Source: Deferribacterales bacterium (GTDB lineage Bacteria; Chrysiogenota; Deferribacteres; Deferribacterales; Geovibrionaceae). From it: a stretch of 64,000 nucleotides of DNA. Made by a program: the position numbers and the translations under genes. The notes beneath the pieces are model-generated. The model worked only from the letters and a program-made list of their open reading frames with translations, was not told the origin of the DNA and did no database searches. Each line of letters begins with the position of its first letter. Position 1 is the stretch's first letter. Below are positions 9,758 through 26,596 of the stretch, in pieces. Location of the stretch: positions 128,001 to 192,000 of the forward strand of contig JBFWLW010000004.1 in NCBI GenBank assembly GCA_050251945.1, in the 5' to 3' direction.

Positions 9758-10525
9758 CTACAGGTGCATGTATTTTTCTGCCATGAGGATTGATATAAGC
9801 TGCTGACGCTTGGAAACGCCTGTTTTAGCGTAGATATTTTTCAGATGGAATTTAACGGTGTTTTCGCTGATGTTAAGAATTTTTGCAATTTCCCAGTTGG
9901 TTTTTCCATTCAGAATCCAGTGGCATGCCTCATGCTCCTTGTCTGAAAGGCAGTTTAAAAGGAGCACCACGTTAAGCCGCTTTCTTGCTGCCATAATGTG
10001 GGTGACAATTGCAGAAGTAATAGCGATTGTTCTGTTATCAGGCTGCTCTTTTGGGTCGGCAAATGAAATGAGAATCCCGAAGTCTTTTGAATCAGAAATT
10101 TCGTAAACTGAAAATCCATATTCCAGTCCGAATTGTTTTCTTATGCGGATAAGCTCTTTTTCGGATACGGAAAGCTTCCTTTCATAAGCATCCCAGATAA
10201 TAAATGATGCTTTTATGTTATTTTCAATCCGTTTTTCAAGCTCTATCCTGACAGGGTCGCACACGAGCAGGTTGTTTGTATTGTAAAATTCCATCCAGTC
10301 CTTCGGATTTGAAATGTTTATCATCCTGATGCTGTCTTCCGTGACATAATGGTGAGGAGTGTAGCAGCATAGCACATATCGGAACCCGATATATTCTGCG
10401 ATATCTTTTAAAAGATGTTCGAATTTTTCTTCCGATGTCATGTTAAGGCAAGTGTCGAATACAGATAGTATCATTTGAAGATCAGTTTCTTTCAGAAAGT
10501 TCAATTCCTGCCGTTCATCAGTCAT
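9758..10525 (-). CDS. LuxR-family regulator with autoinducer-binding domain
   Basis: W..FY.....DPV, W, GL..G ligand-domain residues; C-terminal GKTNWEIAKILNISENTVKFH HTH. Confidence 0.92.
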   Translation of the reverse strand: MTDERQELNFLKETDLQMILSVFDTCLNMTSEEKFEHLLKDIAEYIGFRYVLCCYTPHHYVTEDSIRMINISNPKDWMEFYNTNNLLVCDPVRIELEKRIENNIKASFIIWDAYERKLSVSEKELIRIRKQFGLEYGFSVYEISDSKDFGILISFADPKEQPDNRTIAITSAIVTHIMAARKRLNVVLLLNCLSDKEHEACHWILNGKTNWEIAKILNISENTVKFHLKNIYAKTGVSKRQQLISILMAEKYMHL

Positions 10526-10536
10526 TTGTAATCCTA

Positions 10537-11274
10537 TTACAGGTTAAGATATTTTCCGGTCATAACAGCTGCCGTTGCCTGCTGTCTGTTCAGAACCCCG
10601 AGTTTTGTGCAGACACTTTGCATGTGATATTTAACAGTATTTTCGGCAATATTTAAATCATTTGATATCTCAATGTTGGATTTTCCCGCAAGAAGGTGTT
10701 CGCAAAGTAATTTTTCTTTGTCTGTGAGGGTATTGTATAGAAATACTATATCCAGACGTTTTCTTGCTGCGGTCATATGGTTTATGATTCTGAGCATAAA
10801 TTCCTCCATGCGGCTGTCAGCTGTCATGTTTCTGTCCGCAAAGGAAATGAGGAAAGTGAAATCTGAGTTCGACGAATCCTGATATACGGAAAAACCGTGA
10901 TTAAGTCCGTATGAACAGCGTTCATTTATCAGCTCAATCTCATATCGCGAGAGTTCTCTGTCAAATGAATCCCATTTTATGAATGAAGATTTTATCCCGT
11001 GTTGAAGCTTCAGTTCCATTTCAATGCGCACGGGGTCATTTGCCATATAATTGCAGGTTTGGTATTTAAGCATCCAGTCTGCCGGATTGGAAATGTTGAT
11101 AATATTAACAATTGAGCCTTTAGAATAGGAGATTTTGCAATAGCAGTAAAGAATGAACTGAAATCCCAGATAGTCGGCGGTTTCTCTGATGAGTCGGTGG
11201 TAGTCCTCTTCTGTCTGGATCCTGAAACATGAGTTGATTATGTATATAACCATAAGTAGATCATCTTTGCTCAT
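10537..11274 (-). CDS. LuxR-family regulator with autoinducer-binding domain (paralogue)
   Basis: WMLKY...Y...DPV, W, GL..G; C-terminal GKSN.EI...LNIAENTVKYH. Confidence 0.92.
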   Translation of the reverse strand: MSKDDLLMVIYIINSCFRIQTEEDYHRLIRETADYLGFQFILYCYCKISYSKGSIVNIINISNPADWMLKYQTCNYMANDPVRIEMELKLQHGIKSSFIKWDSFDRELSRYEIELINERCSYGLNHGFSVYQDSSNSDFTFLISFADRNMTADSRMEEFMLRIINHMTAARKRLDIVFLYNTLTDKEKLLCEHLLAGKSNIEISNDLNIAENTVKYHMQSVCTKLGVLNRQQATAAVMTGKYLNL

Positions 11275-11517: not shown

Positions 11518-13026
11518 GTGAAATGTAAGAACAAGAGGGGTTTCATGCCTTGGTTATTACTTTATTCACTTCTGTTAAGTATTATTACAGTTTCAAATGT
11601 CAACGCAGAAAGTATTAAGCTTGAACAGGTTTTGTCTGTTGCGATGCAGAAGCAGGCAGACGTTCTCATACAGAAGCTGAACATAGATTACGCAAAAGGG
11701 AAGCGTTTGAGTTCTTCTTCAGCATTCGATGCCGTTTTGTCTGCATCGGCAGGTTACAAGGATGCTCAGTCCCCGCTGACAATTCAGCAGTCCGCCGCAT
11801 ATGGCATATCAACAGCGGACAGCCGTTTGCGGAGTTATATGGTTCAGCTTTCAAAGACCATGAGATCGGGGTTAAGCCTTACCGCAGAGATGAGTCTCTC
11901 AAATGAGATGGATGATACCTACGGAGCTTCGGATGACAATACCAGAACAGTGGGACTTACACTAGGAATCCCCTTTTTTGATCTTTTGGACGGTAATACC
12001 TCAAACTATGCTGAGAAATCAGCGGAAGAGGATGTGAAGTCTGCCATAGAATCGTATTACAGTCAGATAAGCCAAAGCATGTATCAAACCATGTCTGCAT
12101 GGTGGAATTTTACGGCGGCATATGAAGCTTATAAAATTTACAGGCAGAGTCAGCAGCTTAATGAGAAGTATTACGAAGACTACAAAAAGCTGGTTGAAAA
12201 GGATGAAAGACCCAGGTCGGATCTGATCCAGCTTCAGGCGAATATTGCTGTGATCAGCATGGAGACCAAGGCTGCGGAAAAGAGTTATGTATCTGCCGGC
12301 TATTCTCTTTGTTCGTCACTGGGTATTCCTTATGACAGAGAGAAGTTTCTCGATCCTGACACGAGTTGGATATCTTTTAATACGATTATTGAAAAGATAA
12401 ACGGGTATCTTGAAAACCCGTATGAAAGGCGGTTTGATATCCTTGCTGCTAAATCGGATGTCGAAAGTTCTTCCATTCTTATACGGGCGTATAAAAGAAA
12501 CCTGCGACCTGACGTGAATATAAATCTGTCTGCCGAAACCTCATCGAAAACCAAGAATGACCCGTTATATGATACGGACGGACGCAACAGAGGAAACACT
12601 CTTTCTGCGGAGGTCACATATTCCTTTCCCCTGTCGAATTCCTCAGCAAAAGGACTGCTTATGCAGCAGATGTCTCTGAGGCAGCAGAACCTTATTCAGT
12701 ATGAAGAGCTGAAGCGGGCAGCTGACATAGATATTGCGGACGCTGTTCAGGAGTTTCGTCTGGCTGTCGATTCGGTGGCGTTGGCGGAGCAGTCGGTTGC
12801 ATTTTATGAGCAGGCTTTGGTCACCGAGAAAAAGAAACAGGCTATCGGTATGAGCACGGTGCTTGATGTGCTGTCCACAGGGGACAGTCTGCGTGACGTG
12901 ATGCTTGAGAAGATAAGTTACCAGCTCAGTGCGGCTCTTGCCGCTGCAAAGCTCGCCTATGTCTCTGGAGCCATTCTTGAGGTGAGAGGCGGAGAGCTTA
13001 TTATTAACCGTGATTTCTTACCTTGA
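11518..13026 (+). CDS. TolC-family outer membrane efflux protein
   Basis: Signal peptide, OEP-like helical repeats (RRFDILAA...P; G.STVLDVL); first gene of the export operon. Confidence 0.85.
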   Translation: MKCKNKRGFMPWLLLYSLLLSIITVSNVNAESIKLEQVLSVAMQKQADVLIQKLNIDYAKGKRLSSSSAFDAVLSASAGYKDAQSPLTIQQSAAYGISTADSRLRSYMVQLSKTMRSGLSLTAEMSLSNEMDDTYGASDDNTRTVGLTLGIPFFDLLDGNTSNYAEKSAEEDVKSAIESYYSQISQSMYQTMSAWWNFTAAYEAYKIYRQSQQLNEKYYEDYKKLVEKDERPRSDLIQLQANIAVISMETKAAEKSYVSAGYSLCSSLGIPYDREKFLDPDTSWISFNTIIEKINGYLENPYERRFDILAAKSDVESSSILIRAYKRNLRPDVNINLSAETSSKTKNDPLYDTDGRNRGNTLSAEVTYSFPLSNSSAKGLLMQQMSLRQQNLIQYEELKRAADIDIADAVQEFRLAVDSVALAEQSVAFYEQALVTEKKKQAIGMSTVLDVLSTGDSLRDVMLEKISYQLSAALAAAKLAYVSGAILEVRGGELIINRDFLP

Positions 13027-13035: not shown

Positions 13036-14295
13036 ATGTCTGAGATATTCAGAAGAAAGTCGCTGGAGAAACTTGCCTCTCCCGACAAACTGGATGAGCT
13101 TATGCTGGTCACCGATGCCAAAGGGTGGCTTGCTCTTCTGGCTTTGGGGCTTATTATTGCACTGGCAGTTTTCTGGGGTTTTTTCAGTACAATACCCGAA
13201 AAAGTTGACGGACTTGGTATTTTTCTACGTCCGGAAGGGCTTGCCGATGTGATTGCTCCTTCAACCGGACAGGTTAAGGATATATACGTCAGCACGGGTG
13301 ATATTATCAAAAAAGGCTATCCGGTTGCAAGGATAAACCAGATGGAACTTCTTGCTGAAATAAAAGACCTGCGGAGCGTAATAAACGACCTTAAATTTAA
13401 CCTCGAAAATCTTAAAAAAGCAGAAACTCAATCTGTTTCCATGAAACAGTCAATGAGCACACAGCGAAAAGTAGCTATCCATGAGAAGGTTCTGAATCTC
13501 CGAAAACAGGAAGCATGGCTGAAACAGAAGATAGAAAACCAGAAAAAACTTTACGATGACGGGCTTATCACGTGGCAGACCCTGATTGATTCACAGTCTA
13601 ATCTTGATTCTGTCAGACAGCAGATCAGTGACGCGGAGAGTTCACGCAGTCAGGATGAAATGGAGCTTCATGAGAGATTCGGTCAGAAGGACAAGCAGGT
13701 TGAAGACCTGAACACGCAGATTGCCCAGAAGGAGCGGGAGCTTGAGAAACAGCTGCTTGCTCTGGACAATTCTTCAAAAATAATAAGTCCTTACAACGGG
13801 CGGATTGTGGAGCTTAACGTTGACAGGGATTCTATGGTGAGTAAAGGCTCCCCTATAGCCCGGATAGAGATAAGCGACGACAGCATCAAGAACCTCGAGG
13901 CGGTGATGTATTTTCCGCCTATGCAGGGTAAAAAGGTTAAACCCGGAATGCGGGTCAATATTTCTCCGTCAACTGTCAAGCAGGAGGAATATGGCTTCAT
14001 CGTCGGTATCGTCACTTTTGTGTCCGAGTTTCCGGTGTCGTCTTCCGCCATGGAAAGTACATTACATAACGATTCTCTGGCTCAGAATTTCACCCAGAGC
14101 GGCGCCCCTGTCGAAATAAGAGCCGATCTCATACCCGATCCTTCAACACCAAGCGGATTTAAATGGTCTTCACGCAAAGGACCGGACATAACCATTGAAA
14201 CAGGGACTCTCTGCACTGCGAGCGTCGCTGTTTCGGAGCAAAAGCCTATAAATCTGGTTGTCCCGCTGTTTAAAAAATATGTTTTGGGCAGATAG
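13036..14295 (+). CDS. NHLP bacteriocin system secretion protein (HlyD-like)
   Basis: IFR.KSLEKLASPDKLDEL N-terminus, one TM, coiled coil, EEYGFI.G.V..VS.FP, WSS.KGP. Confidence 0.92.
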   Translation: MSEIFRRKSLEKLASPDKLDELMLVTDAKGWLALLALGLIIALAVFWGFFSTIPEKVDGLGIFLRPEGLADVIAPSTGQVKDIYVSTGDIIKKGYPVARINQMELLAEIKDLRSVINDLKFNLENLKKAETQSVSMKQSMSTQRKVAIHEKVLNLRKQEAWLKQKIENQKKLYDDGLITWQTLIDSQSNLDSVRQQISDAESSRSQDEMELHERFGQKDKQVEDLNTQIAQKERELEKQLLALDNSSKIISPYNGRIVELNVDRDSMVSKGSPIARIEISDDSIKNLEAVMYFPPMQGKKVKPGMRVNISPSTVKQEEYGFIVGIVTFVSEFPVSSSAMESTLHNDSLAQNFTQSGAPVEIRADLIPDPSTPSGFKWSSRKGPDITIETGTLCTASVAVSEQKPINLVVPLFKKYVLGR

Positions 14296-14298
14296 ATC

Positions 14299-16470
14299 AT
14301 GAAAATTCCGTTTATATCGTCCGGAACAAAAAATTATACCAAAACTCCGACGACCCTTCAGATGGAGGCGGTGGAGTGCGGGGCTGCGTGTCTCGCCATG
14401 ATCCTTGATTATCACGGATTAAAAGTTCCGCTTGAGATTGTAAGGCAGGACTGCGGCGTCTCGAGAAACGGAAGCAAAGCCAGCAATATGGTTAAAGCTG
14501 CACGAAAATACGGTCTTGATGCAAGGGGATACAGAAAAGAAGTCGGCGAGCTTCAGACCATGAAGATGCCTGTCATAATCTTCTGGAATTTCAATCACTT
14601 TGTGGTGCTTGAAGGATTCAGGAACGGCAAAGCGGTTCTTAATGACCCCGGTGTGGGCAGACGTTTTATCGAAATGGACGATTTTGACGATTCATACACA
14701 GGCGTAACTCTGACCTTTAAGCCGACGAAGAGTTTTGTCAGAGGCGGCGAATCCGGATCAATGTATAAAGCTCTTCTTGAGAGATTCCGCGGTTCGGAGA
14801 TTGCCGCGGCATACGTCATTCTGGCGGGGCTGTTTCTTGTTATACCGGGGCTTGTGATCCCCGCGTTTTCAAAGATTTTTGTGGACAGTATCCTTGTCGG
14901 CGGAATGGATGACTGGCTGCGCCCATTGCTGTTCGGCATGGCTGCAACTTTTCTCGTGAGGGGCGGGCTGACATGGCTCCAGCAATATTACCTTCTGCGG
15001 TTTGAAACCAAACTGGCAACTGTTTCCACCGCAAAATTCCTTATCCACGTCCTCAGACTTCCCATTACATTTTTTGCCCAGAGGATGCCCGGCGAGATCG
15101 TCAGCCGCATCCAGCTCAACGATGTGGTGGCGAACCTCATAGCAAACCAACTGACTGTGAACGTTATCAATCTGATGATGGTGGTGTTCTACACCGCTGT
15201 GATGTTCTATTACGATGTAATGCTGACGATTACCGGCATTCTGATAGCTCTCATAAACATTGGGATGCTTAAGCTGGTGTCATCTAAACGAATAATATTA
15301 AACCAGAAATTCCAGATGGAGGGTGGAAAGCTTATCGGAATCTCCATGTCCGGACTTTCCATGATAGAGCCGCTCAAGGCGAGCGGCGGTGAATCTGATT
15401 TCTTTGCGAAATGGGCAGGTCAGCAGGCAAAGGTAATAAACACACAACAGCAGCTGGCGGTTCCGACACAGCTTCTTATGGTGATGACTCCTTTTCTGAT
15501 GAGCGTCAACACGGTTGTAGTTCTGGGGTTTGGCGGGTTAAAGGTCATGAACGGCGAAATGACACTTGGTATGCTGGTGGCATTTCAAAGCCTTATGGCA
15601 AGTTTTATGACTCCGTTTAATCAGATAGTGAACATGGGTTCGACACTCCAGCAGACTGTTTCTGATGTGAACAGGCTGGATGATGCCATGCGCTATAAAG
15701 AGGATATCAGGTTTTCTGAATCACATGTTGTTTCCATGTCCGATAAGCTTGAAGGCGGTCTTGAGCTGAAAGACATCAGTTTTGGCTACAGCAGCCTGGA
15801 AGAGCCTCTCATAAGAGAATTCAGTGTTAAGCTGAACAAGGGGCAGCGTGTTGCCATTGTCGGCGGCTCCGGTTCGGGCAAATCCACTGTGGCGAAACTG
15901 GTCAGCGGGCTATATGAGCCATGGGGCGGTGAGATACTTTATGACGGATATAAAATCAGAGAGATAGAGGATTCCGCTCTTTACGACTCCATCGCAATGG
16001 TGGATCAGGATATTTTCATGTTTGAAGGTACTGTGCGGGACAACATAACCATGTGGGACAGCACGATTTCCGATGCTGACGTTCTTAAAGCCGCAAAGGA
16101 TGCCTGTATCCATGAAGATGTTGCGATACGCCCCGGTGCGTACCGCAGCAGAGTGGAAGAGGGCGGCGGCAATTTCAGCGGAGGGCAGAGACAGAGGCTT
16201 GAGATAGCGCGGGCACTGGTGCGCAATCCTTCCATACTTATTCTGGATGAAGCCACAAGCGCACTGGATGCGCAGACTGAAATGGATGTGGTGGATAATA
16301 TCAGAAAGCGGGGCGTGACCTGTCTGATCGTGGCGCACCGTTTAAGCACAATAAGGGACAGTGACGAGATCATTGTTATGGATAACGGGCTTATAGTCCA
16401 GAGGGGAACCCACGAAAGTATGATTTCCGGGGAGGATAAGCCGTATGCGCAACTCATCAGATCATACTGA
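14299..16470 (+). CDS. NHLP-type peptidase-containing ABC transporter (C39 peptidase/permease/ATPase)
   Basis: QMEAVECGAACL (catalytic Cys), WNFNHFVV (His), NDP; Walker A GGSGSGKS, FSGGQRQ, LDEATS. Confidence 0.96.
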   Translation: MKIPFISSGTKNYTKTPTTLQMEAVECGAACLAMILDYHGLKVPLEIVRQDCGVSRNGSKASNMVKAARKYGLDARGYRKEVGELQTMKMPVIIFWNFNHFVVLEGFRNGKAVLNDPGVGRRFIEMDDFDDSYTGVTLTFKPTKSFVRGGESGSMYKALLERFRGSEIAAAYVILAGLFLVIPGLVIPAFSKIFVDSILVGGMDDWLRPLLFGMAATFLVRGGLTWLQQYYLLRFETKLATVSTAKFLIHVLRLPITFFAQRMPGEIVSRIQLNDVVANLIANQLTVNVINLMMVVFYTAVMFYYDVMLTITGILIALINIGMLKLVSSKRIILNQKFQMEGGKLIGISMSGLSMIEPLKASGGESDFFAKWAGQQAKVINTQQQLAVPTQLLMVMTPFLMSVNTVVVLGFGGLKVMNGEMTLGMLVAFQSLMASFMTPFNQIVNMGSTLQQTVSDVNRLDDAMRYKEDIRFSESHVVSMSDKLEGGLELKDISFGYSSLEEPLIREFSVKLNKGQRVAIVGGSGSGKSTVAKLVSGLYEPWGGEILYDGYKIREIEDSALYDSIAMVDQDIFMFEGTVRDNITMWDSTISDADVLKAAKDACIHEDVAIRPGAYRSRVEEGGGNFSGGQRQRLEIARALVRNPSILILDEATSALDAQTEMDVVDNIRKRGVTCLIVAHRLSTIRDSDEIIVMDNGLIVQRGTHESMISGEDKPYAQLIRSY

Positions 16471-18628
16471 TAAAACAGGTCATTCGCGTAAACTTGACGA
16501 TGCGGTACTTAATGCCGCATTCAGGCGTATGACAGGGGTTATGGACAGGCGAATTGTTGAAACAGAGCCTTCCGATGATCCTGTGTTTGTTGCCGCCGCA
16601 GAGGTTGCGGGGGAGATGGGTTTTTCAATTCCGAATCTGCCTTATGACACAAACTGTTCCAATGTGGAAAAGCTGAAACAGATAGCAAGAATCGGCGGGT
16701 TTAGAACCAGAAACGTTCTGTTGGAGGGTGAGTGGTGGAAATCTGACTGCGGCATTCTGTTCGCTTTCACCCAAAACGATGAACCGGTGAGCCTCTTAAA
16801 AAGGAAATCCGGTTCATATATAATGAAAAACACTGTAACCGGAGAGGTTTCTGCCGTTAACAGACAGGTTGCAGACACTCTGGATCCTCTTGCCGTAACA
16901 TTTTATAAACCGTTTCCATCCAAACCGCTTAAGTTCATGGATATTTACAGGATGACTGTCAAAGAGAACAGGAGCGACTTTTTGTCTATTGCTGTGATCG
17001 GCACGATAGGCGGTCTGATAGGTGTGGTCACTCCCATGGTTTCCGGGGTCATTTTTGACGACATAATTCCGTCGGCAGAGCGGAGCAGGCTTTTTGATTT
17101 TATTCTTATTCTGTTCTGTCTGGCGTTTGTCAATGCACTTTTCGGCATAACAAAGGGACTTTGTTCTGTAAGAATTCAGAGCAGAATCAACAACACTGTC
17201 CAGTCTGCCCTTTGGGACAGACTGCTTGCCCTGCCTGTTCCGTTTTTCAGAAGTTATACGTCAGGCGAGCTGGCGAGCAACAGTCTGGGAATAAACGGCA
17301 TAATACAGGCTCTTTCCGGCGTGACGATGAATGCCATTCTGTCGACTATCTTCTCAATATTCTACCTGTTTCTGCTTTTTTACTACAATGCGGGGATGGC
17401 GGTAATCGCGATACTGATGTCGCTTCTGACAGTGCTGATATCTGCCGGAATCGGTATGTATAAGGTGAAAAGGCAGGGAGAGAGCGTCATAGCTGATAAC
17501 AAATCAGCAGGTTTTCTGTTTCAGGTGATGTTTGGAATTTCAAAAATCAGAATCACGGGAGCATATAAACGTGCTTTCGGGAAATACAGTCTGTTGTTTA
17601 CAGAGAAAAAAACCGCAGATATCAGGATGGGCGGAGCGGAAAACATTGTTGTAACCATAAATGCGATGATACCCATCATAACCAGCATGGTTTTATACGG
17701 CTGGATGTCTGTGAAGGTTGAGAATGTCACTACCGGTCAGTTTATTGCTTTTCTTTCAGCGTTCAGCTCATTTCAGACCTCACTTTTGTCAATGACCGAA
17801 TCGGTCATGACCTCGCTGAAAGTTGTGCCGCTGTATAAAAACATGCAGCCAATAATAGAGACCATGCCTGAGTTTGATGAAGTGAAGGGAATTCCAGATG
17901 GAATCAGAGGCGGAATTTCTGTCAGTCAGGTGAGCTTCAGGTACAGTGCGGATTCGCCGCAGATACTTTCTGATGTGTCCATTGAGGCGAAACACGGTGA
18001 GTTTGTTGCCATTGTAGGCGGGTCTGGTTCCGGAAAATCCACGCTGCTGCGCCTTCTGCTTGGATTTGAAAAACCGGAATCGGGAACTGTTTTTTATGAT
18101 GACCATGATCTGGACACTCTGGATGTGCTTGAGGTACGCAGACAGCTCGGCGTTGTTTTGCAGAACGACGTGCTCATTCAGGGCAGCATTATGGAGAATA
18201 TTGTTGGTCAGTCGGGCAGGCTGACTATTAACGACGCATGGTATGCGGCGGAGATGGCGGGGATTGCGGAGGATATAAAACAGATGCCTATGGGAATGCA
18301 CACGATGATTCCTGCGGGAGGTTCCGGAATATCCGGCGGTCAGAAACAAAGACTTATCATCGCACGGGCACTGGTTAAGAAACCGGCTCTTTTGTTGTTT
18401 GACGAAGCCACAAGTGCGCTGGACAACAAAACACAGGCGGAAGTCAGCAGAAATATCGAAGCGTTGCAAGTCACAAGAATAGTAATAGCCCATCGCCTTT
18501 CTACGATCCGCAATGCTGACAGAATATATGTTTTGGAAAAGGGACGTATTGTTCAGTGTGGGACATTTGACGAACTTATGGCACGGGACGGGCTTTTCCT
18601 GAAACTATCAAGGAGACAGATCGCATGA
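16445..18628 (+). CDS. NHLP-type second ABC transporter (no active peptidase)
   Basis: R.V.L.GEWW..D.G degenerate N-domain; GGSGSGKS, ISGGQKQ, FDEATS. Confidence 0.93.
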   Translation: MRNSSDHTDKTGHSRKLDDAVLNAAFRRMTGVMDRRIVETEPSDDPVFVAAAEVAGEMGFSIPNLPYDTNCSNVEKLKQIARIGGFRTRNVLLEGEWWKSDCGILFAFTQNDEPVSLLKRKSGSYIMKNTVTGEVSAVNRQVADTLDPLAVTFYKPFPSKPLKFMDIYRMTVKENRSDFLSIAVIGTIGGLIGVVTPMVSGVIFDDIIPSAERSRLFDFILILFCLAFVNALFGITKGLCSVRIQSRINNTVQSALWDRLLALPVPFFRSYTSGELASNSLGINGIIQALSGVTMNAILSTIFSIFYLFLLFYYNAGMAVIAILMSLLTVLISAGIGMYKVKRQGESVIADNKSAGFLFQVMFGISKIRITGAYKRAFGKYSLLFTEKKTADIRMGGAENIVVTINAMIPIITSMVLYGWMSVKVENVTTGQFIAFLSAFSSFQTSLLSMTESVMTSLKVVPLYKNMQPIIETMPEFDEVKGIPDGIRGGISVSQVSFRYSADSPQILSDVSIEAKHGEFVAIVGGSGSGKSTLLRLLLGFEKPESGTVFYDDHDLDTLDVLEVRRQLGVVLQNDVLIQGSIMENIVGQSGRLTINDAWYAAEMAGIAEDIKQMPMGMHTMIPAGGSGISGGQKQRLIIARALVKKPALLLFDEATSALDNKTQAEVSRNIEALQVTRIVIAHRLSTIRNADRIYVLEKGRIVQCGTFDELMARDGLFLKLSRRQIA

Positions 18629-19158
18629 AAAATGCGGAAGAATGCAGAAAACTTTTCGTAATGCGGACGGAGGATTTTGAGGAGCTTTACAGAGAGCTGT
18701 ATCCGTTTGTCCGCAGATATCTTTCATGGAGAGTGAGCGACGGCGAGACAGCCGACGATATGGCTCAGGAGATTTTTGCGAAGGTGTGGAAACACAGGCA
18801 GAGTTTTGAAGGGAAATGCTCTCTTAAAACATGGGTCATGAGAATAGCCGCTAACCACTTGAAAGATTACTACAAATCAAAAAGACCCGACATGACTGAC
18901 GATTCTCATTTGTCTGTCATTTGCTCGGATGATGACATAGAAACGGCATATCAGGCAAAATGTAAGCTCAGCGTGGTGCAGAGGATAATTAAATCCATGC
19001 CTCTGTCATATCGTGAGCCTTTTGTTCTCATCCGGTTTGATAACCTTTCATACAGGGAAGCTGCGGATGTTCTCAGCATCAGTGTGAGTCTGGTCAAAGT
19101 CCGTGTCCACAGGGCGCATATGATGCTGACGGATGCCATGAGGGGGGAAGAGATATGA
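18625..19158 (+). CDS. ECF RNA polymerase sigma factor
   Basis: ADDMAQEIF.K.W...F...KTWV.RIA.N (region 2); LSYREAADVL.ISV..VKVR.HRA (region 4). Confidence 0.95.
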   Translation: MKNAEECRKLFVMRTEDFEELYRELYPFVRRYLSWRVSDGETADDMAQEIFAKVWKHRQSFEGKCSLKTWVMRIAANHLKDYYKSKRPDMTDDSHLSVICSDDDIETAYQAKCKLSVVQRIIKSMPLSYREPFVLIRFDNLSYREAADVLSISVSLVKVRVHRAHMMLTDAMRGEEI

Positions 19159-19454
19159 AATACGATATTACCCGTTTCAGAGAATCGGTTACGGATATGC
19201 TTGCCGGAGAGCTTTCGGAAAAGGACTCTGCGGGGCTTATTGCTGCAATGAAAAGGGACGTAACTTTTGCGCAGGAGTATCGTCTGATGAATAAAGCATG
19301 GGAAGATGTTGCGTCGGAAGAATACCAAACCCCGCCCATGTCGGACAGACTGGCACAATTTGTTTTCGGCGGTGAACTGACCGAAGATGATTTGGACATG
19401 GTTTCCGGAGGAATAGGACAGGATCCGCTTCCGGACGAAGATGACGACAAATAA
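19155..19454 (+). CDS. putative zinc-free anti-sigma factor with C-terminal double-glycine leader motif
   Basis: 4-nt overlap with the sigma gene; DMLAGELS...QEYR.M resembles an anti-sigma domain lacking HxxxCxxC; ends ELTEDDLDMVSGG-IGQDPLPDEDDDK. Confidence 0.7.
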   Translation: MKYDITRFRESVTDMLAGELSEKDSAGLIAAMKRDVTFAQEYRLMNKAWEDVASEEYQTPPMSDRLAQFVFGGELTEDDLDMVSGGIGQDPLPDEDDDK

Positions 19455-19470: not shown

Positions 19471-20034
19471 ATGAGTTCAGAAAGCTTTCAGAGTTTTATT
19501 CAGGCAATTTCCGGCGATGTGGAAGCTACAGCCAGATTTAAGGAATGTATATTAAAGGGGAGAGAGTCTGTCGTGGCTTATGCCCATGAACTTGGCTACG
19601 AAATAGACGCAGATGATCTTGAAATTCTTTATGAGAAGTTTAAGCAATCTGTTAAAGACGTTATTGAAACATCGGAAGCCGATGAAAGCGAAGGTATGAA
19701 AAACCTTAAGAGCTTTATGAGGTTTTCCGGCGGCAATGAAGATGTGAAAAGAAGACTTGCAGAACTTGGCTTCGGTGACCCTCAGGCAGTCGTAAATTAT
19801 GCGAAAGAGCTTGGGTATGAGTTTTCGGAGAAGGATCTGGATGAATTCAGCAAACAGCTTCTTGATAAGTCCGAAGAACTCAGCGATGAGGATTTGGAAA
19901 AGGTTGCAGGTGGATTCCTTTTATTAAGCCTCGCACTAACCGCTTTGGTAGGAGTAGTGTCGATGGCAATAGCGGCAGTTTCCGGAGCTGCTGTAGGAGC
20001 AGCAGTGGCAATAGCAGTGACATCAGCAAAATGA
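19471..20034 (+). CDS. RiPP precursor P1, tandem double Nif11 leader, hydrophobic core
   Basis: 148-aa leader with two A.ELGYE....DL motifs ending ELSDEDLEKVAGG; core FLLLSLALTALVGVVSMAIAAVSGAAVGAAVAIAVTSAK. Confidence 0.9.
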   Translation: MSSESFQSFIQAISGDVEATARFKECILKGRESVVAYAHELGYEIDADDLEILYEKFKQSVKDVIETSEADESEGMKNLKSFMRFSGGNEDVKRRLAELGFGDPQAVVNYAKELGYEFSEKDLDEFSKQLLDKSEELSDEDLEKVAGGFLLLSLALTALVGVVSMAIAAVSGAAVGAAVAIAVTSAK

Positions 20035-20080
20035 TTCTCATAACACTAGCTTTTTTAACAACAAATATAAGAGGTAAATT

Positions 20081-20635
20081 ATGAGTTCAGAAAGTTTTCA
20101 GAGTTTTATTCAGGCAATTTCCGGCGATGCGGGAGCTACAGCCAGATTTAAGGAATGCTTAATAAAGGGTAAAGAGTTTGTTGTGGCTTATGCCCATGAA
20201 CTTGGCTACGAAATAGACGCAGATGATCTTGAAGTTCTTTATGAGAAGTTTAAGCAATCTGTTAAAGACGTTATTGAAACATCGGAAGCCGATGAAAGCG
20301 AAGGGATGAAAAACCTTAAGAACTTTATGAGGTTTTCCGGCAGCAATGAAGATGTGAAAAGAAAACTTGCAGAACTTGGCTTCGGTGACCCTCAGGCAGT
20401 CGTAAGTTATGCGAAAGAGCTTGGGTATGAGTTTTCGGAGAAGGATCTGGATGAATTCAGCAAGCAGCTTCTTGATAAGTCCGAAGAACTCAGCGATGAG
20501 GATTTGGAAAAGGTTGCAGGTGGATTTACGTTAGTTGCAGCACTGTTAGTAGCAGCCGCATTAGCGGCGGTTATAGCGTTGGGAGCTGTCGGAGTCGGAG
20601 GAGCTGTCGCAGTGGCATCTGTGGATTCATTCTGA
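20081..20635 (+). CDS. RiPP precursor P2, tandem double Nif11 leader, hydrophobic core
   Basis: Leader nearly identical to P1; core FTLVAALLVAAALAAVIALGAVGVGGAVAVASVDSF. Confidence 0.9.
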   Translation: MSSESFQSFIQAISGDAGATARFKECLIKGKEFVVAYAHELGYEIDADDLEVLYEKFKQSVKDVIETSEADESEGMKNLKNFMRFSGSNEDVKRKLAELGFGDPQAVVSYAKELGYEFSEKDLDEFSKQLLDKSEELSDEDLEKVAGGFTLVAALLVAAALAAVIALGAVGVGGAVAVASVDSF

Positions 20636-20672
20636 TGATGCAGGTCGGATGCAGATTGCAGGTGGGGAGCAT

Positions 20673-22139
20673 ATGAGAAACATGGATTACTTATCATCTT
20701 TTTCGCAAGAAGAAGTGAGAATATTAGCACAACTCAAAAGAGTTTTTGAATGTACAGATGGCGACCCGGATATCCGGGAAGTTGTTTCTGGTAAAGCAGT
20801 TACTGATAAAGCTGTTGAAAGGTTTAAGCAGATAGGCGTATCTCTGGATATGAAGGATATCGCTTTTATCTGGGAGATACCTTATGAGTGCACCCTTTAT
20901 ATTACAGCTCTTTTGTTAAAAGATAAAATTACTCTGCCGGATGGTGTTGCTGAAAAAGCGGAAAACTACCCTTTGCTTAAGCTTTGGAGAAGATATGTTG
21001 AGGTTGCGATGCAATCCGTGTGCAGCTGTCAGCCGTCAGAAAATATTGTGACAACAAACAGCGCACTGAACAACTGGAGAAAAAGGAGAATTGCGGCTGC
21101 AAAAAGCGAATTGGGGCATTTTGGCAACGTGATAAGCCACCCTCTGTATGCCTTTGAGTTGAGTTCAGGATGCGGTGTGGGGTGCTGGTTTTGTTCCTTT
21201 GCTACAGATAAACTGAAAGATGTTCTGGATTATGAGACAAACAAAGATTATTTCGCAGCTGTAATCGGCAGATGTGTCGAACTGTTCGGGAAACAGGGTG
21301 CAGGCTCGGCACTGCCGTACTACAGGACGGAACCGCATGATAACCCTCATTATATCGATTATCTGAAAGATTTTGAAGAGATAACGGGCTCGGTTTTATG
21401 CACTTCGACAGCCGTTGGAAACGATAAGGATTGGGTTAAGGCTTTGCTGGCATATTATGGTGACAAAAGTCCATGGCCAAGACTCAGTGTTCTGTCTGTT
21501 GGTATGCTTAAAACCATTTATGAGAATTTTACGCCTGAAGAGCTTATACATCGACAGCTTTTAATGCAGATGAAAGAGAATTTACGCCCGAAAGTATCCG
21601 GAGGACGGATTCTGGAGGAGAAAAGCGGCATCAGGGATATTTCACCGGATGCTGATATAAAGCAAACTATTGTTCCTCAGGGTTCAATAGCCTGCGCATC
21701 AGGTTTTCTGATCAACCTTGTCAGACGCACGATAGATGTTTTCAGTCCTTGCTACACGTCAGCAAAATGGCCTTACGGATACAGAGTTTTTGACAGTGCC
21801 GTTTATGAGGACGAAAACGATTTTCCTATTGTAATTCAGAAGCTTATCAACAAAAACATGCATATGTCTCCGCCGATGGACAAGCCTTTGCGATTTCGTG
21901 ATGACATGGTTTATAAAAAGACTGATGCCGGATTTGATCTTGTTACGCCGAACCAGATTCACCATTTCAGGCTGAAAGACAAATGCGGTCCCGTTGGTGA
22001 ACTGATAAATTCCGGCAATATGACCAATGCTGAAATTCAGAGAAAATTAATTGATGAACACGGTATTAATCCGTTTGTGGTTGGAGCTTCCATACAGAAG
22101 CTGTTTGACGACGGCATGATTGATGAGGTTTACAGTTAA
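20673..22139 (+). CDS. radical SAM peptide epimerase, PoyD/OspD type
   Basis: WR.RRI, FELSSGCGVGCWFC and SIACASGFLINLV....FSPC....WPYGY match my recollection of proteusin epimerase motifs; no SPASM domain; start moved to ATG 20673. Confidence 0.88.
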   Translation: MRNMDYLSSFSQEEVRILAQLKRVFECTDGDPDIREVVSGKAVTDKAVERFKQIGVSLDMKDIAFIWEIPYECTLYITALLLKDKITLPDGVAEKAENYPLLKLWRRYVEVAMQSVCSCQPSENIVTTNSALNNWRKRRIAAAKSELGHFGNVISHPLYAFELSSGCGVGCWFCSFATDKLKDVLDYETNKDYFAAVIGRCVELFGKQGAGSALPYYRTEPHDNPHYIDYLKDFEEITGSVLCTSTAVGNDKDWVKALLAYYGDKSPWPRLSVLSVGMLKTIYENFTPEELIHRQLLMQMKENLRPKVSGGRILEEKSGIRDISPDADIKQTIVPQGSIACASGFLINLVRRTIDVFSPCYTSAKWPYGYRVFDSAVYEDENDFPIVIQKLINKNMHMSPPMDKPLRFRDDMVYKKTDAGFDLVTPNQIHHFRLKDKCGPVGELINSGNMTNAEIQRKLIDEHGINPFVVGASIQKLFDDGMIDEVYS

Positions 22140-22169
22140 TATATCAAAATGTGTCTACGGAGGCAGCGG

Positions 22170-22511
22170 ATGTCAGTTGAAAAAGTTAAAGAGTTTTTCA
22201 AGCGTCTGGAAGATGACGAGGCATTCAGGGATGATTTCCTGAAAGACGAAAAACTTGAAAAAGGCAACTATGAAGCAATCTGCAAGGCAGCCTCTGCGAA
22301 GGGCTATGAGTTCACCGCCGAAGACTTTAATGTGGCAAAAGAGGAAATGAAAAAAACAGAACTCACCTCCGACCAGCTCGAAAAAATAGCAGGTGGAGCA
22401 GGTTTAGGCATATGTTTTGTCGGCGGATACGGATCCTGGTATTCGAGTGAGAGCGGATATCACGAAGGCAGCTCCTATGGCTTTTGCCTGATATTCGGCT
22501 TTAATTTTTAA
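22170..22511 (+). CDS. Nif11-leader RiPP precursor P3
   Basis: MSVEKVKEFF...LEKIAGG; core AGLGICFVGGYGSWYSSESGYHEGSSYGFCLIFGFNF. Confidence 0.92.
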   Translation: MSVEKVKEFFKRLEDDEAFRDDFLKDEKLEKGNYEAICKAASAKGYEFTAEDFNVAKEEMKKTELTSDQLEKIAGGAGLGICFVGGYGSWYSSESGYHEGSSYGFCLIFGFNF

Positions 22512-22532
22512 TAATTTCGACAGGAGGAAGTC

Positions 22533-22886
22533 ATGTCAGTTGAAAAAGTTAAAGAATTTTTTAAACGCCTGGAAGATGACGAGGCATTCAGGGATGATTT
22601 CCTGAAAGACGAAAAACTTGAAAAAGGCAACTATAAAGCAATTTGCAAGGCAGCCTCTACGAAGGGCTATGAGTTCACCGCCGAAGACTTTAAGGCGGCG
22701 AAGGAAGAGATGAAAGATACGGAGCTTACTCATGAACAGCTCGAGAAGGTCAGCGGAGGGGTCAGCATTTGTATATCTATCGGAGAAAGTCTTACCTGTT
22801 CATCTATATCCACGTATTATCAAACTTGTGCGCATCAGGCATATTCGGAAATGGTGAGCGGTTGTTCAGCTCCTGCGCTCGCATAA
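22533..22886 (+). CDS. Nif11-leader RiPP precursor P4
   Basis: Core VSICISIGESLTCSSISTYYQTCAHQAYSEMVSGCSAPALA. Confidence 0.92.
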   Translation: MSVEKVKEFFKRLEDDEAFRDDFLKDEKLEKGNYKAICKAASTKGYEFTAEDFKAAKEEMKDTELTHEQLEKVSGGVSICISIGESLTCSSISTYYQTCAHQAYSEMVSGCSAPALA

Positions 22887-22962
22887 AGCATACATGTAAA
22901 TAATGACTGGCAAAAAGTAACAGCTTTGAAGGATGCAATTGTGAAGACACTGGAGGCATATT

Positions 22963-23322
22963 ATGTCAGTTGAAAAAGTAAAAGAGTTTTTCAAACGTCT
23001 GGAAGATGACGAGGCATTCAGGGATGATTTCCTGAAAGATGAAACACTTGAAAAAGACAACTATGAAGCAATCTGCAAGGCAGCCTTTGTGAAGGGTTAT
23101 GAGTTCACCCTTGAAGACTTTAAGGCGGCAAAGGAAGAGATGAAAGATATTGAGCTTACTCATGATCAGCTTGATAAGGTCAGCGGAGGAATACCGGGCG
23201 ACCTCCTGTGTGCAGTTCCTCCAATTGGTGGCTGTTCATCTGCAGCCACGTATTATAGTACGTGTGAGCATCAGGCATGGGCGGAAATAAATAGCGGTTG
23301 TTCAGCTCCTGCGCTCGCATAA
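22963..23322 (+). CDS. Nif11-leader RiPP precursor P5
   Basis: Core IPGDLLCAVPPIGGCSSAATYYSTCEHQAWAEINSGCSAPALA. Confidence 0.92.
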   Translation: MSVEKVKEFFKRLEDDEAFRDDFLKDETLEKDNYEAICKAAFVKGYEFTLEDFKAAKEEMKDIELTHDQLDKVSGGIPGDLLCAVPPIGGCSSAATYYSTCEHQAWAEINSGCSAPALA

Positions 23323-23398
23323 AGCATACATGTAAATAATGACTGGCAAAAAGTAACAGCTTTGAAGGATGCAATTGTGAAGATACTGGAGGCATATT

Positions 23399-23758
23399 AT
23401 GTCAGTTGAAAAAGTTAAAGAGTTTTTCAAACGTCTGGAAGATGACGAGGCATTCAGGGATGATTTCCTGAAAGATGAAACACTTGAAAAAGACAACTAT
23501 GAAGCAATCTGCAAGGCAGCCTTTGTGAAGGGTTATGAGTTCACCCTTGAAGACTTTAAGGCGGCAAAGGAAGAGATGAAAGATATTGAGCTTACTCATG
23601 ATCAGCTTGATAAGGTCAGCGGAGGAATACCGGGCGACCTCCTGTGTGCAGTTCCTCCAATTGGTGGCTGTTCATCTGCAGCCACGTATTATAGTACGTG
23701 TGAGCATCAGGCATGGGCGGAAATAAATAGCGGTTGTTCAGCTCCTGCGCTCGCATAA
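23399..23758 (+). CDS. Nif11-leader RiPP precursor P6 (protein identical to P5)
   Basis: Identical translation to 22963-23322. Confidence 0.9.
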   Translation: MSVEKVKEFFKRLEDDEAFRDDFLKDETLEKDNYEAICKAAFVKGYEFTLEDFKAAKEEMKDIELTHDQLDKVSGGIPGDLLCAVPPIGGCSSAATYYSTCEHQAWAEINSGCSAPALA

Positions 23759-23834
23759 AGCATACATGTAAATAATGACTGGCAAAAAGTAACAGCTTTG
23801 AAGGATGCAATTGTGAAGATACTGGAGGCATATT

Positions 23835-24143
23835 ATGTCAGTTGAAAAAGTTAAAGAGTTTTTCAAACGTCTGGAAGATGACGAGGCATTCAGGGATGAT
23901 TTCCTGAAAGATGAAACACTTGAAAAAGACAACTATGAAGCAATCTGCAAGGCAGCCTTTGTGAAGGGTTATGAGTTCACCCTTGAAGACTTTAAGGCGG
24001 CAAAGGAAGAGATGAAAGATATTGAGCTCAATGAAAACCAGCTCGCAGGCATAAGCGGCGGTGTAAGTGCCGATTCTAATAAGCCTGTGTCTTATTGTCA
24101 ACCATTTGGTATCGGCGGATACAGCATATATATTCCTGAATAA
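23835..24143 (+). CDS. Nif11-leader RiPP precursor P7
   Basis: ...LAGISGG; core VSADSNKPVSYCQPFGIGGYSIYIPE. Confidence 0.9.
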   Translation: MSVEKVKEFFKRLEDDEAFRDDFLKDETLEKDNYEAICKAAFVKGYEFTLEDFKAAKEEMKDIELNENQLAGISGGVSADSNKPVSYCQPFGIGGYSIYIPE

Positions 24144-24177
24144 GTGTTTTAACCATCTGATAAAAGGAGCGGTGATA

Positions 24178-25536
24178 ATGGCAAAATATGCGGTTTTGAA
24201 TAAAGACTGGGCTTTGCGCGGCTGGACGACACTTGAAAAAGCGGCAGTTAATACCGTAAGCGGGCGTGTTGTTCCTCTTGTAAACAGGGCGGACTATGTT
24301 TTAAGGTCGTGTGACGGTAAAACGGATTTTGAAATGCCTATTTTTCTGGATACGCATCTTGAAATTCTCAACATCCTCGAAAAACAAAAGATTGTAACGA
24401 TTATGGATACCGAATCTTCAATTCAGCCGTACCAAAAGTTCAGAAAGGCTGAATGCCCGTATGTAATGAATGTGCATTGGGCGATAACCGGCAGGTGTAA
24501 TCTGAAATGTATGCATTGTTTCATGGAGTCACCGTCAATAAGGTCGGATAATCCGACATTTAAACAGATTGAGACGACAGTAAAAAGTTTCATCGAGGCT
24601 AATGTGCCTGCCGTGAGTCTGACAGGCGGTGAGCCGCTGATTAGAAAAGACCTTTTTGACATAATTGCTTTGCTGAACAGCGAACATATTGCAGTCAGAC
24701 AGATTTATACCAACGGAATACTTATTACAGAAGAGATTCTTAAAAAATTTGAGGCATTGCCTTTTAAAGTTCAGTTTAATGTCAGCTTTGACGGTGTCGG
24801 CTGGCACGACAGAATGCGTGGACTGAAAGGAACAGAAGAAAAGACTCTGCGAGCCATACGGATGATCAAAGAGGCGGGGCATGAGCTTTGCGTTGCAACA
24901 ACTATTGACAGATTGAGTGTCGTAAGTCTGTTTGAAACATATGAGACGATGAAACAGTATGGTGTGGGAGTGTGGCGGATAATGACTGCGGAGGATAGCG
25001 GAAACTGGCACGAACACAGAGACCTTTCGCTCACGTTAGACGAGGAACTGAAAGCATATTCGCCATTGTTTAAAAGATGGCATGAAGACGGGCACCCGAT
25101 GGTGGTTCAGTTCGGGTATCTTTTTGACGGACGGAAAGAGGGTTTCGAAGAATTTAAACCTCCGGTAACCATTAAACACGACGCAAAAAGCAAAGCATGT
25201 TCAACATGTGCATATTCCACATATCTTGGTCCGGAAGGAAAACTGCTCCCGTGCCATATTTATACCGGAACTGAACTTGAAAAACAGCTTCCAAGTATTT
25301 ATGAGGTCGGTTTTGCGGGAGCATACAATAACGAACTTCTGCGCAGCATCAATGATATGACAATCGGAGACCTGTTCGGAGAAAATCCGGAATGCGAAGG
25401 ATGTGCTCATCTCGAACGCTGCGGAATAGGCTGTCGGGCGAAAGCGTATTCAGACTACGGCAAGGTTACTGCCAAAGACGGGCAGATGTGTGCTGTAATG
25501 CTCAACAAATATACCGAGAGAATGCAGGAAATATAG
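24178..25536 (+). CDS. radical SAM/SPASM peptide maturase with probable N-terminal RRE
   Basis: CNLKCMHC, TGGEP, SFDG...HD..RG; SPASM C..C...G...PC...CEGC.....C.IGCRA...C; N-terminal L..CDG.T is PqqD-like. Start moved to ATG 24178 (AGGAG RBS). Confidence 0.93.
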   Translation: MAKYAVLNKDWALRGWTTLEKAAVNTVSGRVVPLVNRADYVLRSCDGKTDFEMPIFLDTHLEILNILEKQKIVTIMDTESSIQPYQKFRKAECPYVMNVHWAITGRCNLKCMHCFMESPSIRSDNPTFKQIETTVKSFIEANVPAVSLTGGEPLIRKDLFDIIALLNSEHIAVRQIYTNGILITEEILKKFEALPFKVQFNVSFDGVGWHDRMRGLKGTEEKTLRAIRMIKEAGHELCVATTIDRLSVVSLFETYETMKQYGVGVWRIMTAEDSGNWHEHRDLSLTLDEELKAYSPLFKRWHEDGHPMVVQFGYLFDGRKEGFEEFKPPVTIKHDAKSKACSTCAYSTYLGPEGKLLPCHIYTGTELEKQLPSIYEVGFAGAYNNELLRSINDMTIGDLFGENPECEGCAHLERCGIGCRAKAYSDYGKVTAKDGQMCAVMLNKYTERMQEI

Positions 25537-25545: not shown

Positions 25546-25824
25546 ATGTCAGCTGAAAAAGTTAAAGAGTTTTTCAAACGTCTGGAAGATGACGAGGCAT
25601 TCAGAGATGATTTCCTGAAAGACGAAACACTTGAAAAGGAGAACACCGAAGCGGTTTGCAAGGCAGCTGCTGCAAGAGGTTATGAGTTTTCTGCCGGTGA
25701 CTTTAAAGCGGCAAAGGAAGAGATGAAAGATATTGAGCTTAGTCATGATCAGCTTGAGAAAGTCAGCGGAGGAGGGGATGTTTATAATGACTCTGATAAT
25801 TGTATGGTTGCGATGAAGTCCTGA
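25546..25824 (+). CDS. Nif11-leader RiPP precursor P8
   Basis: Core GDVYNDSDNCMVAMKS. Confidence 0.9.
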   Translation: MSAEKVKEFFKRLEDDEAFRDDFLKDETLEKENTEAVCKAAAARGYEFSAGDFKAAKEEMKDIELSHDQLEKVSGGGDVYNDSDNCMVAMKS

Positions 25825-25873
25825 AATACAAAATTTTTGAGAAAGGCAATTGTGAAAAACAGGAGGACATACC

Positions 25874-26221
25874 ATGTCAGTTGAAAAAGTTAAAGAATTT
25901 TTCAAACGTCTGGAAGATGACGAGGCATTCAGGGATGATTTCCTGAAAGACGAAACACTTGAAAAAAGCAACACCGAAACAATCTTCAGCGCTGCCGCTG
26001 CAAGAGGCTACAAATTTTCTGCCGATGATCTTAAAGCTGCTAAAGAAGAGATGAAAGATACGGAGCTTACTAATGATCAGCTTGATAAGGTCAGCGGAGG
26101 GGTTGGGCTTGGCATATGTTTTGTGTATGGCATTGGTTTGTTTGGTGTTTCAGACGGAGAAAACAATGCCGTAATTGAGGGAGTTACAGCTGGTGTCTGT
26201 TTTGGTGTCGGATTTAATTAA
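25874..26221 (+). CDS. Nif11-leader RiPP precursor P9
   Basis: Core VGLGICFVYGIGLFGVSDGENNAVIEGVTAGVCFGVGFN. Confidence 0.92.
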   Translation: MSVEKVKEFFKRLEDDEAFRDDFLKDETLEKSNTETIFSAAAARGYKFSADDLKAAKEEMKDTELTNDQLDKVSGGVGLGICFVYGIGLFGVSDGENNAVIEGVTAGVCFGVGFN

Positions 26222-26237
26222 GGTCAAGGAAAGTTTT

Positions 26238-26585: not shown

Positions 26586-26596
26586 GGAGAATAATT

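Follow-up and report, generated by a model that had tools for sequence, protein, structure and literature searches.

In a 64,000-nucleotide stretch of contig JBFWLW010000004.1 from a Deferribacterales bacterium (positions 128,001 to 192,000 of the forward strand; hereafter the window), a gene for a 99-amino-acid (aa) protein directly follows the gene of an extracytoplasmic function (ECF) sigma factor, between the operon of a peptide exporter with a C39 peptidase domain and an array of peptide precursor genes. The 99-aa protein was modelled as a class I anti-sigma-fold partner of the co-encoded sigma, whose inhibition is predicted, and it carries near its C-terminus the double-glycine (GG) motif of an exporter leader. 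Such a putative class I anti-sigma with a mimic of an export leader is a real and conserved design, apparently not described before. The mimic is proposed to act as the sensor: the exporter would cut the anti-sigma, and degradation of the remainder would then free the sigma, a course of events to which we give an even chance. Somewhat more probable is the broader proposal that the C39 exporter doubles as signalling protease or receptor of an ECF switch, with the decoy leader reporting free C39 sites, in at least two phyla, in GG and Ala-Ala-Gly versions, and with a dead C39-like domain as a possible dedicated reader. Taken together, all readings that leave the sigma outside control by exporter cutting or capture are doubtful. 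Anti-sigma, C39 exporter and ECF promoters are all of known kinds; the wiring is new.

The original prediction for this DNA, made from the letters alone, had placed the 99-aa gene in translational coupling with the sigma gene and the exporter, and this was borne out. ATGA overlaps, both with ribosome-binding sites, occur at the junctions of the second ABC (ATP-binding cassette) gene with sigma and of sigma with the 99-aa gene, and the TolC, HlyD, ABC1 and ABC2 genes are spaced by 9 nt or 3 nt or overlap (Table 1). The 99-aa protein is thus encoded directly after an ECF sigma gene, as class I anti-sigmas are. The sigma scored above the cut-offs of Sigma70_r2 and r4_2 (Pfam) and TIGR02937 (NCBIfam); one other clear ECF sigma was found in the 3.07-Mb genome. 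The 99-aa protein gave no Pfam or NCBIfam family, only one sub-threshold match to a leader model, and no match to the Nif11 leader domain (PF07862, TIGR03798). The prediction was also right that it lacks a transmembrane segment and zinc ligands: its best 19-residue Kyte-Doolittle mean is 0.39, vs. 1.9-2.7 in ten membrane anti-sigmas, so that by hydropathy it has no transmembrane helix leading to an outside domain, and it contains no Cys and no His, hence no Hx3Cx2C ligands of the zf-HC2 anti-sigmas. Near its C-terminus stands ELTEDDLDMVSGG, after which a tail of 13 residues closes the protein.

An anti-sigma-like N-terminus able to bind the sigma had been predicted, and the models agree with it. 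AlphaFold2, using a seven-row alignment, gave helices at residues 5-16, 22-34, 36-53 and 64-71 (mean predicted local distance difference test score, pLDDT, 74), corresponding to the three-helix bundle plus helix 4 of class I anti-sigmas, and a fifth helix at residues 77-83 over the motif. The first five Foldseek rows were MucA and RsiW (E 0.2-1.9), and the top three of 48,161 chains in VIA were RsiW (Z 6.8, rmsd 4.8, 70 aligned), MucA (6.7, 2.6, 53) and PupR (6.3, 2.5, 54). ESM Atlas leads, which lay under its bars, were mostly anti-sigma clusters. The complex of the sigma with the 99-aa protein scored 0.77, vs. 0.00 for the best control; that mark was reached by 116/157 solved pairs and 2/215 mismatched pairs. 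Runs shared at least 48% of contacts, with a partner pLDDT of at least 66. The confident interface comprised residues 9-71, with helix 1 on sigma region 4 (residues 9-19 against sigma 161-169) and helix 4 on region 2 (residues 59-71 near it), an arrangement described for class I anti-sigmas (PMC7406223). As residues 74-99 were not among the confident contacts, the motif may be free in the modelled complex.

For the peptidase LahT150, the last 13 leader residues suffice, positions -12, -7 and -4 are hydrophobic, and the tested changes at -3, -5 and -8 were tolerated (PMC6363468). Leu75, Leu80, Val83, Gly85 and Gly86 of the 99-aa protein supply -12, -7, -4 and GG, so that by sequence every determinant shown for LahT150 is present; at the last two positions GG, GA or GS counts as the leader signature of a C39 substrate. 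The strict pattern EL[ST]xxxLxxVxGG occurred 13 times among all open reading frames (ORFs) of at least 50 aa in the genome, all in the cluster (12 precursors and the 99-aa protein), where 0.03 was expected from composition. The claim that the protein uses the precursors' own motif therefore stood for the strict pattern and needed refining in detail, since it has Asp-6 and Met-5 where 14 of the 16 local precursors scored have Lys-5. Asp-6 with Met/Leu-5 was found in 19/20 GG-type anti-sigma motifs vs. 0/56 precursors of the same loci, and Asp-6/Met-5 is common to the window and Bacillota anti-sigmas, which share 8-10 of 13 residues. The anti-sigma motif thus forms a lineage of its own. Local precursors lack this anti-sigma-specific pair, and on that ground the view that the motif was recently copied from a neighbouring precursor was rejected. 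Motif DNA identity does not separate the sources (22-30 of 39 positions for local precursors vs. 26-29 of 39 for Bacillota).

A search of 1.84 billion representatives returned four matches (the protein itself, two relatives and one repeat protein), and a profile search eight, adding four relatives and one precursor; the repeat protein (P0003) and the precursor, which is of the nitrile hydratase leader peptide (NHLP) type (P0010), were left out of the relatives. All six full-length relatives (30-52% identity) keep Leu-12, Leu-7, Asp-6, Gly-2 and Gly-1 and have an acidic tail of 13-15 residues after the GG. Single-sequence word searches recovered only the 99-aa protein itself and, at E 1e-20, only the sigma itself. 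No relative of the 99-aa protein was found in 67 other genomes of the window's phylum or in the viral contigs and plasmids searched. The presence of the module in no other of these 68 genomes suggests that it was acquired sideways.

The exporter offers two places where such a motif could be read. TIGR03794, TIGR03796 and TIGR03797 all scored above cut-off in the window, and the cognate exporter in the locus has the intact Cys-His-Asp expected for a substrate of peptidase-containing ABC transporters (PCATs); the C39 triad is intact in 16/16 exporters aligned. The N-terminal region of the TIGR03797 subunit was modelled with a C39-like fold (pLDDT 90) and has no Cys at the start of the first helix. 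Its best Foldseek rows were HlyB-type C39-like domains (E 8e-4), then LahT and PCAT1; sequence methods did not show this domain and the fold search alone did. The region is conserved in 12 aligned loci. TIGR03797 has been described as lacking a peptidase domain (PMC2887384). By modelling, the exporter has one active and one probably dead leader-binding fold.

Counterparts were found in Bacillota. Pattern scans of genomes gave four Syntrophomonadaceae or Clostridia loci (4/8 loci) with the order exporter, ECF sigma, motif-ended protein of 83-101 aa, precursors. Among the matches listed, L003, L006, L007 and L009 were rejected as precursors and L004 as a wrong-frame match, and L002 repeats L005; L098 (G895) was also a precursor and not an anti-sigma. 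A profile that avoids selecting on the motif was made from the N-terminal domain alone of the pattern-scan proteins and searched in 401 Bacillota genomes, giving 17 anti-sigma matches. Twelve of these are 80-128 aa long, follow an ECF sigma and carry the motif; eleven have the exporter within ~7 kb, and the twelfth lies on a 6.6-kb contig beside a precursor, its genome holding a TIGR03796 fragment at a contig end. The remaining five (301-324 aa) carry a membrane helix and lack the motif, and the region fetched around them (for one, a 1.8-kb contig) holds no such exporter. A DUF4367 domain on the outside was seen in four further long forms that were scanned. TIGR03796 was present in 22 of the 401 genomes, namely 11/12 with a short form vs. 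11/389 others. Taken from the exporter side, 13/26 loci have a sigma and a motif-bearing anti-sigma, 2 have a sigma with no such anti-sigma in view, and 11 have no sigma.

Over all searches, the exporter shares a contig with 24 of the 26 motif-bearing Bacillota anti-sigmas, and the other two are on 3.1- and 6.6-kb contigs beside a precursor. In eleven membrane forms from the same sigma subfamily the motif is absent and no exporter lies close by (two of the eleven are on tiny contigs). Judged from the sequences, the leader motif is in the place of the membrane sensor of these sister proteins. The same figures bear on the idea that the motif is what remains of a co-opted leader and now adds only to sigma binding or stability, unread by the exporter. 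Such a remnant would suit the anti-sigma-specific hydrophobic residue at -5, the loss of GG in one clade and a complex model that allows contacts by residues outside those named; the link to the exporter, the membrane forms without motif and the fact that no motif-bearing copy was seen away from an exporter cluster in any of the Bacillota searches make it improbable.

The form of the motif varies among the Bacillota proteins. Fourteen keep a perfect GG, with a tail of 13-16 residues in most. A second group has a motif with the ending Val-Ala-Ala-Gly and, behind it, a CxxC..CxxC tail (8/8 scored), and 7/7 of the group's precursors scored keep Gly-2. Tails differ completely between groups (acidic, mixed-charge, zinc-ribbon), and the distance between helix 4 and the motif differs by more than 20 residues among the proteins. 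Minimal anti-sigma-like proteins with helix 4 and an AAAG-type motif were seen at L079:13404-13616, L088:17886-18158 and L096:9851-10114, two of them apart from the sigma gene; in L008, L036 and L062 the motif comes after helix 3, with little or no helix 4. Conservation of the motif in homologues, on which the original prediction depended, thus held for the six full-length relatives and only in part for Bacillota, where 12/26 relatives have Ala-Ala-Gly.

Because these 12 lack a canonical GG, binding without cutting is a serious rival: the active C39 or the dead C39-like domain would bind the motif helix and pull off or tether the anti-sigma, precursors would displace it, and cleavage at GG would be incidental. 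The 12 do keep the acidic helix, Leu-12 and Leu-7, a second C39-like fold is predicted in the exporter, Asp-6 with Met/Leu-5 suggests a second constraint on the anti-sigma motif, and the motif is retained both where helix 4 is all that is left of the domain (L079, L088, L096) and where there is little or no helix 4 (L008, L036, L062). The perfect GG and short tail of near-fixed length in the window copy, its six relatives and the 14 Bacillota proteins speak for cutting, and the variable spacing argues against one steric mechanism. Capture was rated unlikely, though ahead of each of the other rivals.

Candidate promoters connect the sigma with the cargo genes. From a comparison of the region before 30063 with the anti-sigma gene, the pattern GTAAC-N16-CGTC was obtained; it matched three times in the window vs. 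0.20 expected (19260, 30121 and 11410, the last not used in the derivation). For the longer form GTAAC-N16-CGTCT(A/G)A the genome as a whole has three matches, namely these three sites of the cluster. AAC and CGTC are typical ECF promoter elements. Since such sites occur genome-wide only in the cluster, before precursors and LuxR genes, the sigma probably drives the precursor genes. The internal promoter at 19260 faces 14 precursors, and as it lies a third into the anti-sigma gene its transcript cannot yield full-length anti-sigma. What that transcript would hold, Met62 onward (19338-19454), resembles a short double-glycine precursor, with no clear ribosome-binding site before Met62. The codons across this site spell V-T-F-A-Q-E-Y-R-L. 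At the corresponding place four close relatives read E-T-F-x-x-E-F-R-L, a stretch whose codons can also contain the promoter, and the hidden site may thus account for part of the protein conservation there. A sigma-70 promoter scan was at chance level (34 found vs. 31.5 expected), and no clear LuxR box was seen.

In 20/20 Bacillota loci the stretch from the stop of the anti-sigma gene to the precursor or DUF7005 gene that comes next contains a pattern derived from the loci themselves, TGT(G/A)(A/C)TA(C/G)-N15/16-(T/C)GTAT, and a like site is found 5' of sigma in six membrane-form loci. In loci outside the derivation it stands 5' of precursors seven times (L080) and once (L079). In most Syntrophomonas-type clusters DUF7005 (L011:10311-11354 and related loci) heads the genes behind the sigma promoter, a position pointing to a role in maturation of peptides that are synthesized ribosomally and modified post-translationally (RiPPs). 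At L089:5244-6279 the sigma gene is split in two frames, the exporter is interrupted by an insertion, and it is the anti-sigma gene that has the promoter before it. Of the seven zinc-ribbon loci whose exporter is in view, six carry the site 5' of the exporter operon as well (for most GG-type Bacillota loci the fetched region did not reach the start of the operon), which speaks against a pure assembly checkpoint and, for this subgroup, indicates a feedback loop. In the window, the LuxR pair could close such a loop. Release of the sigma once the exporter works, or according to precursor load, had been part of the original prediction; the cargo promoters and the co-occurrence with the exporter agree with it, while a loop of this kind goes beyond an assembly checkpoint and clipping by itself would be insufficient.

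The proposed order of events is as follows. Residues 1-71 would bind and silence the co-translated sigma, as modelled. Free sigma, judging by the promoter motifs, would transcribe the precursor and maturase genes and the LuxR pair. The exporter C39 domain would dock residues 74-86 as it does a leader, cut after GG and export or discard the 13-residue tail. Since the confident interface spans residues 9-71, loss of the tail would not by itself release the sigma and a second step is needed; in what is the weakest part of the scheme, the clipped domain with its small uncharged end would be degraded by ClpXP or another cytosolic protease. Newly made precursors would compete for the same C39 site, so that cargo synthesis would be matched to free export capacity. 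Everything after sigma binding, i.e., C39 recognition, degradation and precursor competition, is what we infer for control of the sigma by the exporter. Exposure of a VAA end leads to ClpXP degradation of RseA and RsdA, which acidic ends prevent (10.1101/491043). ClpX is present in the genome, and an acidic tail that masks a small-residue end fits this model by analogy. The cut would leave VSGG and not the xAA of an ssrA-like degron for ClpXP; many Bacillota relatives have VAA or AAA at that place.

Several points weigh against this scheme. The anti-sigma fold is argued from agreement among individually weak scores (E above 0.2, Z under 8), one of three complex runs scored 0.35, and resemblance to solved sigma/anti-sigma structures may lie behind the complex score. 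The degrons described in 10.1101/491043 (VAA, AAA and GAA) do not include a C-terminal GG. The C39 cleft is narrow and GG-specific (PMC6959990) and the neighbouring precursors keep Gly-2, so the 12/26 Ala-Ala-Gly forms, with no in-register GG, may not be cut. Half of the exporter loci (13/26) are without such an anti-sigma, two of them (L080, L081) despite a sigma. As the Bacillota groups are clades in the sigma tree, the 17 profile matches amount to some four or five independent comparisons. The synteny rests on window and Bacillota proteins whose N-terminal domains do not align: hhalign gave 95.9% over the motif and 0.2% for the N-terminal domain alone. The sigmas are 25-35% identical, the window sigma being a long branch with 20-35% identity to all, and the two kinds of module may have either two origins or one old one.

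Three further explanations were weighed. In the first, the protein is a precursor with two uses: its anti-sigma domain serves as an unusual leader, and the acidic tail, once exported, as a signal peptide that nearby regulators or an outside sensor would perceive. Formally the protein is an 86-residue leader with a 13-residue cargo, such exporters accept any cargo behind a leader (PMC6959990), and the tail is alike in the four closest relatives (K/Q-x-D-P-E/L-x-D); with tails wholly different between groups and no receptor as constant neighbour in the mapped loci, there is little to recommend it. A leader-binding maturase (PoyD-type or another radical S-adenosylmethionine, SAM, enzyme) could instead be the reader, the sigma then sensing free modification capacity. 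RiPP maturases also bind leader helices, and a radical SAM gene is present in most loci. The analogy to leader-helix binding is noted in PMC6363468. Maturases vary by locus (PoyD in the window; DUF7005 with radical SAM, YcaO with LanM-type, or none flagged elsewhere) and the exporter is the constant neighbour; moreover, the window's maturase genes are downstream of a sigma-type promoter, so that their products would be absent before induction, which leaves this reading a shade less probable still. Least probable of all is the FlgM-like export that had been suggested, in which the assembled exporter secretes the whole anti-sigma. The gene order suits it (exporter, sigma and anti-sigma in one operon, cargo under sigma) and FlgM is a precedent (PMC6978683). 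In PCAT1, however, what follows GG is translocated and the leader side is set free in the cytosol (PMC6959990); the sigma-binding domain is on the leader side, and only the 13-residue tail would leave.

The features of the cluster are collected in Table 1. PF07862 matched in 17 neighbouring precursors. The two with tandem Nif11 leaders (19471-20635) have long Ala/Val/Leu-rich cores and lie beside the PoyD-type epimerase, resembling proteusin- or polytheonamide-like D-amino-acid peptides. The 15 further precursors (22149-30063) have near-identical leaders and diverse Cys-rich cores; those at 22963 and 23399 have the same protein sequence, within a 436-nt tandem repeat. A glycoside hydrolase family 3 gene (27979-28986) lies between two precursor arrays, downstream of the minus-strand trio, and minus-strand genes for 768, 374 and 393 aa (30216-34808) lie upstream of that trio; membrane and binding-protein genes of like size precede the exporter in many Bacillota loci. 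At 1-9585 the window is low in GC (34-44%), with Schlafen/AlbA_2 and Abi_C genes flanking the cluster, which suggests, from sequence, that the cluster is in an island.

Table 1. Features of the export cluster and its sigma/anti-sigma pair, in window coordinates.
Feature	Position	Strand	Basis or remark
Two LuxR-type regulators (autoinducer-binding + GerE), tandem	9758..11274	-	Pfam; divergent from exporter operon
Predicted ECF promoter TGTAAC-N16-CGTCTAA	11383..11410	-	136 nt 5' of LuxR pair
TolC-like outer membrane efflux protein	11518..13026	+	Pfam/NCBIfam
NHLP-system HlyD adaptor	13036..14295	+	TIGR03794 above cut-off
NHLP exporter subunit with C39 peptidase	14299..16470	+	TIGR03796; Cys, His, Asp present
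Second exporter subunit	16445..18628	+	TIGR03797; N-terminal region 16571-16939 is the modelled C39-like domain
ECF sigma factor, 177 aa	18625..19158	+	Sigma70_r2, r4_2, TIGR02937
Putative soluble anti-sigma factor, 99 aa (P0001)	19155..19454	+	Predicted fold and modelled complex
Predicted anti-sigma domain, residues 1-71, three-helix bundle + helix 4	19155..19367	+	Modelled to contact regions 4 and 2 of the sigma
Predicted ECF promoter GTAAC-N16-CGTCTGA inside anti-sigma gene	19260..19287	+	211 nt 5' of first precursor; putative function
Leader-like C39 recognition motif, residues 74-86	19374..19412	+	Leu-12, Leu-7, Val-4, Gly-2, Gly-1; determinants from PMC6363468
13-residue acidic tail after GG, net charge -5	19413..19451	+	Sequence
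Two precursors, doubled Nif11 leaders, hydrophobic cores	19471..20635	+	Pfam, ORF translations
PoyD-family radical SAM epimerase	20649..22139	+	TIGR04517 above cut-off
Five Nif11-leader precursors	22149..24143	+	Pfam, ORF translations
Radical SAM/SPASM-type maturase	24067..25536	+	No named family above cut-off among those shown
Seven Nif11-leader precursors	25546..27911	+	Pfam, ORF translations
Three Nif11-leader precursors	29051..30063	-	Pfam, ORF translations
Predicted ECF promoter TGTAAC-N16-CGTCTGA	30094..30121	-	58 nt 5' of minus-strand precursor trio

If control of the sigma by the exporter holds, occupancy of an export peptidase would be a new input to ECF signalling, and PCAT transporters would take on a new role. 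Built-in control would let RiPP clusters of at least two phyla match precursor synthesis to export capacity, which would offer an answer to how clusters with many precursors and one exporter avoid intracellular peptide build-up. Such clusters could be woken by deleting the anti-sigma or supplying the sigma, the promoter motif would name the regulon, and the module would be a portable secretion-load sensor for engineering. The view that the mechanism was undescribed was upheld by a full-text literature search (subscription papers outside its coverage), which found no paper on a leader-motif anti-sigma under exporter control. In the ECF re-classification preprint, the main text is without bacteriocin, C39 and DUF4367, supplementary group descriptions may mention such context, and other soluble anti-sigma variants are said probably to exist (10.1101/2019.12.11.873521).

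Among known systems, class I anti-sigmas under regulated proteolysis (RseA/sigmaE, RsiW/SigW, MucA/AlgU, RsdA/SigD) are alike in the three-helix bundle plus helix 4 on regions 4 and 2 of a co-encoded ECF sigma. The 99-aa protein differs from them in that a double-glycine leader motif replaces the membrane helix and outside sensor. DegS/PrsW and RseP/RasP are the proteases of membrane anti-sigma cleavage; here the proposed first protease is the C39 domain of an ABC exporter. The proposed release, a cut downstream of the domain and then cytosolic degradation, is like that of RseA and RsdA with their VAA ends (10.1101/491043). With the NHLP/Nif11 export system and PCAT substrates (LahA/LahT, CtA/PCAT1) the locus shares the exporter trio and the -12/-7/-4/GG residues (PMC6363468, PMC6959990). 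The description of that system does not use the word 'sigma' in its main text, and it gives TIGR03797 no peptidase domain, where a dead C39-like fold was modelled here (PMC2887384). The candidate substrate of 99 aa, in contrast, would be a regulator and not cargo. In the microbisporicin cluster, MibW sits in the membrane and probably responds to the product after its export. MibX/MibW is likewise an ECF sigma/anti-sigma pair in a RiPP cluster for which peptide export was proposed to release the sigma, and MibW is not described as carrying a leader motif (PMC4203916). As with FlgM/sigma-28, the anti-sigma would be under the control of an export machine, and expression of cargo genes would thereby come after that of the machine (PMC6978683); here the sigma is of the ECF type, the fold class I and the exporter an ABC transporter, the anti-sigma domain would stay inside, and in one Bacillota subgroup the sigma, by promoter placement, would also drive the exporter. 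In the flux sensing of BceAB-BceRS, the load of an ABC transporter also sets transcription (PMC6978683), with the signal passing through a histidine kinase, unlike the substrate-mimicking anti-sigma proposed here.

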